64,000 nucleotides of DNA from a phage, in the sequence record NC_101837.1, one strand, 5' to 3'. Under the pieces are notes generated by a model, which saw only the letters and a program-made list of their open reading frames with translations, made no database searches and had not been told where the DNA came from. Shown one piece after another: positions 59,264 to 60,828 of this stretch (the first letter of the stretch is position 1; each line of letters starts with the position of its first letter). Both the position numbers and the translations under genes were made by a program.

Positions 59264-59533
59264 TTATCGAGGCACTCGGTGGATGATTCTAACAGTAACT
59301 GCGTTTTCATTCATCAAGTATGCATCTACATCTCTGTAAATATAAAACTTCTGCTCACTATCAACAACACAAGCTACCGCCCCTTCAGAGTTGTCTTCAA
59401 AAAAGACCACCACTGCATCGCAGCTGAGTTCATGATATGACTCTCGAAGATTTACAGCCAGAGGATTGAAATCGTCACGAAAATCTACGGTATGGGTTGG
59501 ATTTACACGCTCTACAATTTTAAGTGTATACAT
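59264..59533 (-). CDS. hypothetical protein
   Basis: 89-aa ORF followed by hairpin/U-tract at ~59170-59210. Confidence 0.35.
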   Translation of the reverse strand: MYTLKIVERVNPTHTVDFRDDFNPLAVNLRESYHELSCDAVVVFFEDNSEGAVACVVDSEQKFYIYRDVDAYLMNENAVTVRIIHRVPR

Positions 59534-59579
59534 TTTAAAGGTTCCTTTTGTCTATATATGTTTAAAGTATAACTGAAAG

Positions 59580-59656
59580 TGGTCTCCACGGAGTGATTCG
59601 AACACTCGACCTCCTGATCCCAAATCAGGCGCTCTACCAAGCTGAGCTACGCGGAG
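59580..59656 (-). tRNA. tRNA-Pro (anticodon UGG), CCA encoded
   Basis: by-eye cloverleaf: acceptor CUCCGCG/CGUGGAG (C1-G72), D-stem GCUC/GAGC, anticodon loop UUUGGGA, T-arm GAGUG-UUCGAAU-CACUC. Confidence 0.75.
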
Positions 59657-59667
59657 TATTTACTATT

Positions 59668-59742
59668 TGGTGGCCCTGGGTGGAATTGAACCACCGTCTG
59701 GCGATTATGAGTCGCTTGCTTGAACCTTCCAGCTACAGGGCC
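59668..59742 (-). tRNA. tRNA-Met or Ile2 (anticodon CAU), CCA encoded
   Basis: acceptor GGCCCUG/CAGGGCC, anticodon loop CUCAUAA, T-arm GGUGG-UUCAAUU-CCACC; D-stem has one mismatch. Confidence 0.65.
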
Positions 59743-59743
59743 T

Positions 59744-59819
59744 TGGTGCTGATGGCAGGACTTGAACCTACAACCTATTGATTACAAATCAATTGCACTA
59801 CCGATTGTGCTACATCAGC
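59744..59819 (-). tRNA. tRNA-Thr (anticodon UGU), CCA encoded
   Basis: acceptor GCUGAUG/CAUCAGC, D-stem GCAC/GUGC, anticodon stem AUUGA/UCAAU, loop UUUGUAA, T-loop UUCAAGU. Confidence 0.8.
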
Positions 59820-59824
59820 AAAAA

Positions 59825-59923
59825 GGTGCTAGGCGATGGAATCGAACCACCTATGTATTCAACGACTACCTCGTCTATTTTCAGGATTAAAAATCCTCGC
59901 CCTTGCCAAAGGGCTTACCTAGC
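59825..59923 (-). tRNA. atypical tRNA-like gene (possible anticodon UUU; ~30-nt extra arm)
   Basis: canonical T-arm GGUGG-UUCGAUU-CCAUC and 7-bp acceptor GCUAGGU/GCCUAGC, D-arm GCCC-UUUGGCAA-GGGC, anticodon region AGGAUUUUUAAUCCU, but ~97 nt long. Confidence 0.4.
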
Positions 59924-60021
59924 TCAGTATGTTGACCATGTTGCTAGTCGGCGATGACGACTGTAACATTTGATAATCCGGTTCTGCTTCCGGCTTTCGC
60001 TTAATTACAAGGTCAACAATG

Positions 60022-60112
60022 TGGCGGAGAGTAATGGAATCGAACCATCATCGAGTCATCCTCAACGGGACGGTTTTCAAGACCGCTTGAGCACCATTGC
60101 TCCCTACCCTCC
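60022..60112 (-). tRNA. tRNA-Ser (anticodon UGA), type II, CCA encoded
   Basis: acceptor GGAGGGU/ACUCUCC, anticodon arm GCGGU-CUUGAAA-ACCGU, extra arm UUGAG-GAUGA-CUCGA, T-loop UUCGAUU; D-arm spacing non-canonical in my parse. Confidence 0.55.
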
Positions 60113-60226
60113 TTTATAAATTATACTGATAATGACACTGATTTTCGAGCAGTTAGTGACTAGTATAAACGACGATAAATATCAATGCCATTATCTGTAT
60201 TATTTATGCATCTAAAAATATAAATT

Positions 60227-60313
60227 TGGTGGGGAGTGGTGGAGTCGAACCACCCGAGTCGCAATGACAATAGATTTACAGTCTACACCGCTACCTCTAC
60301 GGGATAACTCCCC
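60227..60313 (-). tRNA. tRNA-Tyr (anticodon GUA), type II, CCA encoded
   Basis: acceptor GGGGAGU/ACUCCCC, anticodon arm GUAGA-CUGUAAA-UCUAU, T-arm GGUGG-UUCGACU-CCACC; D-arm spacing non-canonical. Confidence 0.6.
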
Positions 60314-60317
60314 AATT

Positions 60318-60392
60318 TGGCACCCCGTACTGGACTCGAACCAGTGTCAACGGCTTAGAAGGCCGCTGCTTTATCCACTAAGCTAACAGGGC
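60318..60392 (-). tRNA. tRNA-Arg (anticodon UCU), CCA encoded
   Basis: acceptor GCCCUGU/ACGGGGU, D-arm GCUU-AGUGGAUA-AAGC, anticodon arm GCGGC-CUUCUAA-GCCGU, T-arm ACUGG-UUCGAGU-CCAGU. Confidence 0.7.
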
Positions 60393-60492
60393 ACTGGGTG
60401 GCTTTCTTTTACACCTTAGCCGCCAGAAAAGGTGGGAGACCATGTTTACAATATTACACTGTTAAGCAAAGTTTGTCAAGAAAATATTTTAG

Positions 60493-60828
60493 CTATTTGC
60501 TAACAGGCTGTATTTCTGTAGTAAATGGCATAAAAGGTGCTGGTTTTTCAGCCTCTTCCACTACCACCTCTTCCTCTTCACCAAACATCTCATCATATTC
60601 TTCCTGCATTCGGTCTGCCTTATCAAGAACATACTCTGCAATGCTTTGACGAATATTTTGTTTGGTTTTCGGGTCCAACATCAGCTCTCTTAAAACTTTG
60701 TGAGCTTCTGGAACCATCGCTATAAAAGATTCCTTCATATCAAGGATGTTCTTCTCTAGCTGAATGGCGTTGGACTCCTCTTTCAGAGGTCTGCCTCTAC
60801 GGCGACGCTTTTTAGTTGTATCCGCCAT
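60493..60828 (-). CDS. AT-hook-containing DNA-binding protein
   Basis: ORF track 60493..60948; ATG 60826-60828 (MADTTKKRRRRGRPLK...) preceded by GGAGGAAAC and by a consensus promoter; upstream open frame starts at TTG inside that promoter. Confidence 0.45.
   Translation of the reverse strand: MADTTKKRRRRGRPLKEESNAIQLEKNILDMKESFIAMVPEAHKVLRELMLDPKTKQNIRQSIAEYVLDKADRMQEEYDEMFGEEEEVVVEEAEKPAPFMPFTTEIQPVSK

Follow-up and report, generated by a model that had tools for sequence, protein, structure and literature searches.

The transfer RNA (tRNA) operon of coliphage rV5 was described in 2013 as a group of six tRNA genes, together with an argument based on codon usage (Kropinski et al.; PMC3606486). 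The operon of phage T4 has five specificities in common with the locus described here (Arg-UCU, Ile-CAU, Thr-UGU, Ser-UGA, and Pro-UGG), lacks tRNA-Tyr, is split by the homing endonuclease gene segB, and harbors, inside the tRNA region, two stable RNAs that are not tRNAs, species 1 and 2 (rnaC and rnaD). The tRNAs of phage T5, which are expressed from a strong sigma-70 promoter, act against host defences, tRNA-Lys, tRNA-Thr, and tRNA-Asn against PARIS and tRNA-Tyr against retron-Eco7 (PMC12409363, PMC11555353). We analyzed the tRNA gene cluster located at positions 59580–60392 of a stretch of phage DNA of 64,000 nucleotides (NC_101837.1), the whole of which is referred to as the window. This cluster is the published tRNA operon of an rV5-like coliphage (Vequintavirus). 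In addition to six tRNA genes, it contains a seventh gene that, judging from the sequences of its homologues, appears to specify a tRNA-shaped RNA maintained by selection and unlikely to decode. The corresponding RNA family is conserved across Vequintavirinae and apparently undescribed.

ARAGORN, run over the whole window, detected seven genes, every one of them in the cluster and on the minus strand, separated in the order of transcription by 4, 114, 98, 5, 1, and 11 nucleotides (nt). This result agrees with the initial annotation, which had proposed a compact single-strand cluster of seven tRNAs with several short gaps (1–11 nt). Six of the genes are canonical; the seventh (59825–59923) is a real gene but not a canonical tRNA. 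At its gathering threshold, the Rfam tRNA model RF00005 recovered five genes (Arg, Tyr, Thr, CAU, and Pro). The cluster region was 99.8–99.9% identical to rV5 and to many other Vequintavirus genomes, the DNA identity to rV5 (NC_011041) over positions 59300–60700 of the window being 99.8%. The rV5 record annotates the same six tRNAs and a feature named 'Sigma70-type promoter; P(tRNA)', which corresponds to positions 60479–60451. Since the six tRNAs and P(tRNA) were published in 2013, the operon was already known. The published description comprises six tRNAs only, gives the name Met to the tRNA with the CAU anticodon, and includes neither the seventh gene nor two further elements considered below, a long hairpin in the 114-nt spacer (spacer B, 60113–60226) and a lambda-like element in the 98-nt spacer (spacer A, 59924–60021) (PMC3606486).

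The seventh gene had been labeled an atypical tRNA in the initial annotation. The gene is indeed atypical, and family covariation resolves it to a tRNA-like RNA rather than to a normal decoding tRNA. Its parts are a 7-bp acceptor stem, a D arm, a 5-bp stem closed by the 5-nt loop UUUUA, the linker GAAAAUA, an extra hairpin, the linker GAAUACAUA, and a canonical T arm. The arm located at the anticodon position comprises 15 nt (AGGAU-UUUUA-AUCCU) instead of the canonical 17 nt (5-bp stem and 7-nt loop). The variable region of 31 nt, in which a 15-nt hairpin is flanked by linkers of 7 and 9 nt, fits neither class I (4–5 nt) nor class II tRNAs (a hairpin with flanks of 1–2 nt). The 3' end is A-CC-U in the window, without a complete CCA. 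The elements of the tRNA L-shape are present in the family, including the acceptor, D, and T helices, the T-loop UUCGAUU, and the G19-C56 tertiary pair. The fold proposed by ARAGORN (stem AUUUU/AAAAU, 8-nt loop, and four-base anticodon 'atcc') was rejected because a U-to-A change present in Avunavirus breaks AUUUU/AAAAU, whereas AGGAU/AUCCU is kept and covaries.

Starting from a copy of the gene displaying 71% identity in a Seunavirus, full-length homologues were identified in phages infecting Salmonella, Cronobacter, Enterobacter, Klebsiella, Proteus, and Erwinia. Matches to the tRNA-like RNA occurred in a total of 170 phage records, with one copy per locus. Most records leave the position unannotated; elsewhere the gene appears as tRNA-Lys, tRNA-OTHER, tRNA-TERM, '???', or 'hypothetical protein'. 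A covariance model built from 11 members assigned scores of 88–115 bits to members of the family (107.6 bits for the window copy) and of at most 29 bits to true tRNAs. Covariation was analyzed with 23 distinct sequences, including metagenomic ones, in an alignment fitted to the family model. For the 22 scored pairs, 99.4% of the cells were standard-paired and 12 pairs displayed compensatory changes. None of 500 shuffles matched the covariation score, and register-shifted controls were only 30–45% paired. An independent MAFFT alignment of 11 sequences gave the same picture (10 compensatory pairs, 0 of 500 shuffles). The acceptor, D, and T helices were 100% paired, with compensatory changes, and the tertiary pair between the D-loop and the T-loop was exchanged from G19-C56 to U19-A56 in 7 of the 23 sequences. 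In the first hairpin, the fifth pair was C-G in 10 sequences, U-A in 10, and unpaired in 3. Since this fifth pair covaries, the hairpin has a 5-bp stem and a loop of 5–6 nt rather than a 7-nt anticodon loop. The loop itself is UUUUA in Vequintavirus, AUCAA in Henuna-like members, and CAUCCA, CUUCCA, CCUCCA, or CAGCCA in Seuna- and Mydo-like members; the Avunavirus relatives combine the loop UUAUA with a different discriminator and with compensatory changes that affect the stems of the acceptor and of the extra arm. Both linkers of the extra arm are near-invariant across genera. A pairing between the two linkers (AUGUG/UACAU), found in the tRNA-Sec alignment of Hena1, was dropped because it fails in Vequintavirus and in Seunavirus members.

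All 16 variants found outside E. coli phages end with U73-CCA. In Vequintavirus and Avunavirus, the 3' end is ACC-U, CACA, UACA, or ACAU (U/C-ACA in Avunavirus); the host CCA-adding enzyme could repair such incomplete ends. Outside E. coli phages, the gene starts 2 nt after the CCA of a tRNA in 15 of the 16 variants. The RNA of the seventh gene is probably processed like a tRNA. Outside Vequintavirus, the family is missed by ARAGORN. No match was detected in 5,426 complete E. coli genomes, and a host or prophage origin was therefore not found. The literature search returned nothing relevant on tRNA-like RNAs in Vequintavirinae or on suppressor or pseudo-tRNAs of Hena1 or PVP-SE1. Salmonella phage GE_vB_MG (MG969411, 'UNVERIFIED'; L157 1197–1297) was left out of the family alignment because its two single-C deletions relative to PVP-SE1, in the loop (CATCA versus CATCCA) and at the 3' end (TCAAAC versus TCCAAAC), probably reflect sequencing errors at homopolymers. 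In Seuna-, Mydo-, and Henunavirus phages (L160–L167, about 606–800), the tRNA-like gene is separated from the next tRNA (Leu-UAA) by about 170–210 nt that are largely unannotated, with small hypothetical open reading frames (ORFs) in some records; this gap may hold further structured RNAs.

Records of BASEL phages present the seventh gene as a functional lysine tRNA (UUU), which would have an unusually long variable arm. The tRNAscan-SE-based annotation is tRNA-Lys/AAA, RF00005 aligns a loop UUUUUAA on a 4-bp stem (29.4 bits), and this loop resembles the anticodon loop of tRNA-Lys, including a purine at position 37. This identity is nonetheless highly unlikely in view of the 15-nt arm and of the covariation of the fifth pair. 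The loop varies between genera (UUAUA, CNNCCA, AUCAA), as does the discriminator (A, C, or U), the window copy lacks a complete CCA, the single-stranded flanks of the extra arm (7 and 9 nt) are unlike those of any class II tRNA, and AAA is not enriched among the codons of the phage (0.79-fold relative to E. coli). In view of the covariation, analyses of codon usage or anti-defence should not count this gene among the lysine tRNAs. A relationship to tRNA-Sec was also considered, as RF01852 is the best-scoring Rfam model for members found outside E. coli phages, which, like tRNA-Sec, have a long extra arm, possibly a D stem of 6 bp closed by a 4-nt loop, and, in Erwinia phages, the loop CAUCAAA (UCA). 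This identity was rejected: Rfam returned only sub-threshold tRNA-Sec matches for members outside Vequintavirus (23–39 bits for the other genera versus a gathering cut-off of 47), the acceptor and T stems comprise 7+5 bp instead of 8+5, the discriminator is U instead of G, and UCA is confined to Henuna-like members, being absent from the other genera and from the window copy, for which RF00005 was the sole Rfam match. Finally, the gene could be, in the lineage of the E. coli phages, a decaying relic devoid of function and kept by linkage, derived from an ancestor with U73-CCA and a CC-A loop. The replacement in Vequintavirus and Avunavirus of the U73-CCA end, and of the conserved NNCCA loop by U-rich loops, would be accounted for by such a decay, as would the viability of phage V18, which has lost the 5' half of the gene. 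We consider decay unlikely because the changes in the helices are compensatory and because the gene shows little divergence. In an alignment of eight Vequintavirus clusters (the window and seven relatives, 91.7–99.8% identity), only 4 of its 99 columns were variable versus 21% in both adjacent spacers. Between Vequintavirus and Avunavirus, it was the best-conserved part of the cluster (93–94% identity versus 78% for tRNA-Tyr).

The identity set of glycyl-tRNA synthetase (GlyRS) comprises, according to textbook rules, U73, the G1-C72 and C2-G71 pairs, and a (U/G)CC-A-type loop. The U73-CCA end, the G1-C72 and C2-G71 pairs, and the (U/G)CC-A loop of the members from most genera would resemble this set, a resemblance that does not extend to the window copy. 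In Staphylococcus, non-proteinogenic tRNA-Gly species are the glycine donors for the cross-bridges of the cell wall. They offer a conceptual parallel to the Seuna- and Mydo-type members, which combine a GlyRS-like set with traits that would be unfavorable to decoding on the ribosome. Unlike in this parallel, the members from E. coli phages, the window copy included, have neither U73 nor the CC loop nor a complete CCA, and charging of the family is putative. The other parallel is provided by the species 1 and 2 RNAs of T4. The 3' end of rnaC is T-arm-like (CCGGGTTCGAATCCCGG), but the global identity of rnaC and rnaD to the tRNA-like RNA and to the spacers (0.48–0.53) is at background, as for unrelated tRNAs. 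By this comparison, the likeness appears to concern kind and location only, in the absence of sequence homology. The family, found in phages whose hosts belong to at least seven genera, provides a second tractable case of phages keeping tRNA-shaped RNAs in their tRNA operons, the first being species 1 and 2 of T4.

Spacer A contains a structured element (element A), whose core of about 65 nt displays 87% identity to sequences of phage lambda (NC_001416 44866–44934; L003 601–669) and of the P1-like phage D6 (MF356679 7056–7121; L004). The lambda copy is unannotated and lies between orf-64 and S, and the D6 copy is located just 3' of a tRNA-Ser gene, as in rV5. At least 120 viral contigs, as well as 426 of 5,426 E. 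coli genomes, contained the core, always unannotated and in the transcribed orientation. A helix of 7–15 bp closed the element in 125 of 127 copies, the helix sequences falling into at least five unrelated classes, and the inner hairpin displayed a compensatory exchange of U-A for G-C. The stability of the spacer A fold was modest (z = –2.57). Rfam searches with permissive thresholds assigned no family to spacer A or B in the window, lambda, or D6, and no paper in the literature search matched the core sequence. A small ORF in spacer A was rejected, as a 1-nt indel between lambda and the window shifts the sole ATG-initiated frame. A scan of species-representative genomes gave no taxonomic breadth, all matches being on contamination-like contigs. 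Exact matches to the lambda-type element in Pseudomonas, Shewanella, relatives of Bacillus, Veillonella, and others (L134–L155) were on contigs of about 48.4–48.5 kb or on low-coverage fragments, and look like contamination of public assemblies by lambda control DNA. In D6 (L004 1697–1817), a match to STnc100, a prophage small RNA family, was observed below threshold (39.6 bits versus a cut-off of 47) directly 3' of element A and not over it; the initial bases of this match (UGCGGUGAAU...UAAGCG) are similar to those with which the lambda-type element starts.

Recent transfer of element A is inseparable from selection because of its narrow host range and high identity. The element may be a structured RNA that is freed from the precursor; alternatively, it may be a small module, mobile or recombinogenic, that has entered the loops of hairpins. 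Between Q/tR' and the lysis genes, the Stx-converting lambdoid phages carry three tRNA genes, ileZ-argN-argO. The lambda copy of element A occupies the same genomic slot; unlike in the Stx-converting phages, ARAGORN detected no tRNA in this slot of lambda, and element A is not itself a tRNA. In lambda, element A is situated in the leader of the late operon. The presence of an unannotated, closed core of about 70 nt in the best-studied phage merits examination at the transcript level. We tentatively envisage, as a possibility less probable than not, that Vequintavirinae produce an undescribed L-shaped RNA, barred from decoding by its loop of 5–6 nt and its large extra arm, that is excised like a tRNA and, in view of the GlyRS-like set of most genera, acts outside translation as an aminoacyl carrier or as a decoy or sponge for host nucleases directed at tRNAs, the U-rich, Lys-like loop being adapted to PrrC or PARIS, and that element A is a new structured RNA of rV5-like, P1-like, and lambda phages.

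The genes for tRNA-Arg, tRNA-Tyr, tRNA-Ser, tRNA-Thr, tRNA-Ile2, and tRNA-Pro (Table 1) specify canonical elongator tRNAs. Their anticodon loops (CUUCUAA, CUGUAAA, CUUGAAA, UUUGUAA, CUCAUAA, and UUUGGGA, respectively, for Arg, Tyr, Ser, Thr, Ile2, and Pro) comprise 7 nt with U33 and a purine at position 37. The Ser and Pro tRNAs display 70% and 82% identity to their T4 counterparts, and the 1-72 pair of tRNA-Ser covaries among relatives (G-C, U-A, or A-U). The initial annotation had left the CAU tRNA open between Met and Ile; the Ile2 assignment stood, and Met did not. The gene is labeled tRNA-Ile/ATA in BASEL records, the E. coli matches listed are all annotated as tRNA-Ile (76–82% identity for the full-length ones), and its first 12 nt are those of T4 tRNA-Ile. 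It is not an initiator tRNA because it has a G1-C72 pair and its anticodon stem lacks the three G-C pairs. By these sequence features it is of the Ile2 type and is predicted to read AUA after modification to lysidine.

Table 1. Position of the genes and other features of the tRNA cluster in the window.
Feature	Position	Strand	Basis and remarks
P(tRNA), operon promoter, TTGACA-17 nt-TAATAT	60451–60479	minus	10/12 consensus match and rV5 annotation
Leader between P(tRNA) and tRNA-Arg	60393–60450 (58 nt)	minus	Read from sequence
tRNA-Arg (UCU)	60318–60392	minus	ARAGORN; RF00005 67.8 bits; CCA encoded
tRNA-Tyr (GUA), long variable arm	60227–60313	minus	ARAGORN; RF00005 29.9 bits versus cut-off 29; CCA encoded
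Long hairpin of spacer B (25 bp, three stacked segments, loop of about 38 nt)	60116–60207	minus	RNAfold
Weak promoter candidate in spacer B, ATGGCA-18-TATACT	60162–60191	minus	9/12, consensus match alone
Proposed tRNA-Ser promoter, TCGAAA-17-TATAAT	60148–60120	minus	10/12 consensus match
TATAAT hexamer	60120–60125	minus	Inside 3' arm of spacer B hairpin
tRNA-Ser (UGA), discriminator G	60022–60112	minus	ARAGORN; 41.5 bits with the clan-related tRNA-Sec model (local search); CCA encoded
Spacer A structured element	59924–60021; core about 60006–59942; closing helix 60018–60011 with 59937–59930	minus	
tRNA-like RNA ('atypical tRNA')	59825–59923	minus	ARAGORN '???'; RF00005 29.4 bits versus cut-off 29
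tRNA-Thr (UGU)	59744–59819	minus	ARAGORN; RF00005 76.8 bits; CCA encoded
tRNA-Ile2 type (CAU)	59668–59742	minus	ARAGORN; RF00005 60 bits; CCA encoded
tRNA-Pro (UGG)	59580–59656	minus	ARAGORN; RF00005 66.4 bits; CCA encoded

Codon usage was determined for the window ORFs of at least 100 amino acids (52 ORFs, 53 kb) and compared to that of E. coli. The codons AGA (13.4-fold), AGG (11.4-fold), AUA (5.1-fold), CCU (3.7-fold), ACA (3.5-fold), CCA and UCU (both 1.8-fold), and UCA (1.6-fold) were enriched; UAC (1.07-fold), UAU (0.94-fold), and AAA were not. For the seven cognate codons, the mean log2 enrichment was 1.31 (permutation p = 0.0036). Among 59 codons, AGA ranked 1, AUA 3, ACA 5, CCA 11, and UCA 16. 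The whole-genome figures of the rV5 paper agree with this enrichment (PMC3606486). The initial annotation had proposed that the tRNAs compensate for the codon bias of the phage and that a lack of enrichment of the codons they read would refute this; the test was run, and the claim was not refuted. The proposal holds for the Arg, Ile, Thr, Pro, and Ser codons but not for UAC and AAA, and the presence of tRNA-Tyr and of the 'Lys-like' gene is therefore not explained by codon bias. The tRNAs would thus read codons that the phage (44% G+C) uses far above E. coli, namely AGA/AGG, AUA, and ACA, and to a lesser extent CCN and UCN.

Escherichia phage V18 (KY683736; L158 1150–1480) provides a natural experiment in which the core of codon supply (Arg, Ile2, and Thr) is set apart from accessory genes (Tyr, Ser, Pro, and the tRNA-like RNA). 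A deletion joins the 5' half of the tRNA-Tyr gene to the 3'-terminal 42 nt of the tRNA-like gene, thereby removing spacer B, tRNA-Ser, and spacer A, and the tRNA-Pro gene is degenerate. The only intact tRNAs are Arg, Thr, and CAU, the trio for which codon enrichment is highest. Their retention supports codon supply as the core role of the cluster, the rest being accessory.

Transcription of the cluster is most likely driven by a single host-type sigma-70 promoter, P(tRNA), located upstream from tRNA-Arg. Both hexamers of P(tRNA) were invariant in the eight aligned sequences, the single variable column falling in the spacer, and TTGACA-17-TAATAT was present in consensus scans of both relatives L129 and L131. 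The 58-nt leader had no significant fold (z = +0.86) and 2 variable columns. Along the precursor, the successive parts would be Arg-UCU, Tyr-GUA, a long hairpin rich in AU, Ser-UGA, a closed structured element of about 95 nt, the tRNA-like RNA, Thr-UGU, Ile2-CAU, and Pro-UGG. Host enzymes would cut it, RNase P at the 5' ends and endo- and exonucleases at the 3' ends of the RNAs. No intrinsic terminator was detected within or after the cluster, the terminator-like calls inside it lying in tRNA or tRNA-like arms. Since no terminator follows the cluster, transcription probably runs on into the downstream small ORF and spanin genes.

In spacer B, the long hairpin had a z-score of –4.45 (RNAfold), and none of 200 shuffles was as stable. 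The hairpin is confined to Vequintavirus (113 records). Its 25 pairs were standard in all 125 pair cells of the five distinct sequences, and the pairing survives seven substitutions, which include one compensatory exchange of G-C for A-U and five single changes compatible with wobble pairing. The shuffle control was not significant on its own (89 of 500 with the five distinct sequences) owing to the low variation, and the argument relies on the direction of the substitutions. Selection for pairing in spacer B is thus suggestive rather than proven. It is plausible that this long AU-rich duplex, which is not followed by a U-tract, is a processing site for RNase III, which fits better than a terminator.

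The initial annotation had pointed out a TATAAT hexamer as a possible dedicated promoter. According to this proposal, tRNA-Ser and the genes downstream from it would have their own sigma-70 promoter, with a start at or just before the mature 5' end. The position of the hexamer was confirmed (60125–60120, minus strand, ending 7 nt before G1 of tRNA-Ser), the 114-nt AT-rich spacer has room for a promoter, and TCGAAA-17-TATAAT matches the consensus at 10 of 12 positions. The proposal did not withstand comparison with relatives, and we regard such a promoter as quite improbable. TATAAT is kept by rV5 alone, the hexamer being altered in six of the seven relatives compared (TGTAAT in L131, L132, and L106, TATTGT in L129 and L130, and TGTTGT in L123), and the critical A at –11 is replaced by G in four of the seven. 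The site was absent from the consensus scans of L129 and L131, in both of which P(tRNA) was found. The substitutions in the hexamer keep the pairing of the spacer B hairpin and not the hexamer. In addition, TATAAT is not over-represented in the window (28 copies versus 34.7 ± 5.7 in shuffles), and no promoter is annotated at this site in the part of the rV5 record that was inspected (NC_011041; PMC3606486). Judging from its conservation, the sequence ATGGCA-18-TATACT (60191–60162) is a better candidate for an internal promoter. The motif ATGRCA-18-TATACT was found in all three scans (9 of 12 in the window and L129; 10 of 12 in L131, which has ATGACA).

A single sigma-70-driven precursor, processed by the host and yielding tRNAs that mainly supply decoding of AGA/AGG, AUA, and ACA, is in our view the probable organization of the locus. 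Several observations weigh against this reading. The internal TCGAAA-17-TATAAT site, although not conserved, has in the window a perfect –10 and a –35 matching at four of six positions, and could fire; the conserved ATGRCA-18-TATACT could likewise be a real internal promoter. We infer the single precursor, the RNase III site, and the downstream read-through. The E. coli codon reference comprised just 41 ORFs from one 50-kb K-12 segment, called in the same manner as the phage ORFs. CUU (3.1-fold) and GGA (2.4-fold) are enriched without a matching tRNA in the cluster, so that the set of genes is not predictable from codon bias alone. Finally, V18 forms plaques on its laboratory host without tRNA-Tyr, tRNA-Ser, the spacer element, and the tRNA-like RNA. 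The cluster might instead mainly counter host defences that target tRNAs, its copies replacing or outnumbering those cut by PARIS/AriB (Lys-UUU, Thr-UGU, and weakly Pro-UGG), PrrC (Lys), and retron-Eco7 PtuAB (Tyr). AriB cuts the Lys(UUU) and Thr(UGU) tRNAs most efficiently, and probable cleavage products were reported for tRNA-Pro(UGG) (PMC12409363). The tRNA-Tyr of T5 restores infection in the face of retron-Eco7, and T1 and T7 are rescued from PrrC170 by a tRNA-Lys (PMC11555353). These targets overlap the specificities of the cluster (Thr-UGU, Tyr-GUA, and the Lys-like loop), and tRNA-Tyr and the Lys-like loop lack a codon-usage rationale. However, the experiments of the two cited papers do not cover rV5-like phages, and the terms searched for were absent from them (PMC12409363, PMC11555353). 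In T5, the tRNAs have a canonical structure and carry point changes close to the cleavage site, whereas the 'Lys-like' gene of the window is structurally non-canonical and not a canonical tRNA-Lys. The strongest signal is moreover the codon enrichment for Arg, Ile, and Thr, which V18 retains, having lost Tyr. Anti-defence as the main function is accordingly a doubtful proposition. By analogy with these systems, an anti-defence role is plausible for tRNA-Tyr and tRNA-Thr, and tRNA-Tyr may be an insurance against host nucleases that deplete this tRNA. The two functions are not mutually exclusive; codon supply is supported as the main demonstrable role of the tRNAs of the cluster.

The ORFs neighboring the cluster provided no functional lead from PHROG assignments. 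The upstream ORFs belong to PHROGs of unknown function, and downstream a PHROG of unknown function is followed by Rz-like spanins. The rV5 paper names no RNA ligase, polynucleotide kinase, or CCA-adding enzyme (PMC3606486). The trnR feature of the rV5 RefSeq record NC_011041 (L001 3519–3693) spans 175 nt, extending through the leader and P(tRNA) into ORF 74. This span is an annotation error, the true tRNA-Arg gene comprising 75 nt. Escherichia phage navn (MN850642 39718–41463) has about 345 extra bases and an extra 'hypothetical protein' inside the tRNA cluster, which may be an insertion, like segB in T4, and tRNA-Pro is not among the feature names shown. About 18 GenBank records of 'Campylobacter phage' (MG0656xx, host C. 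jejuni) match the region, those listed being 99.6–99.9% identical; they are probably mislabeled or contaminant genomes.

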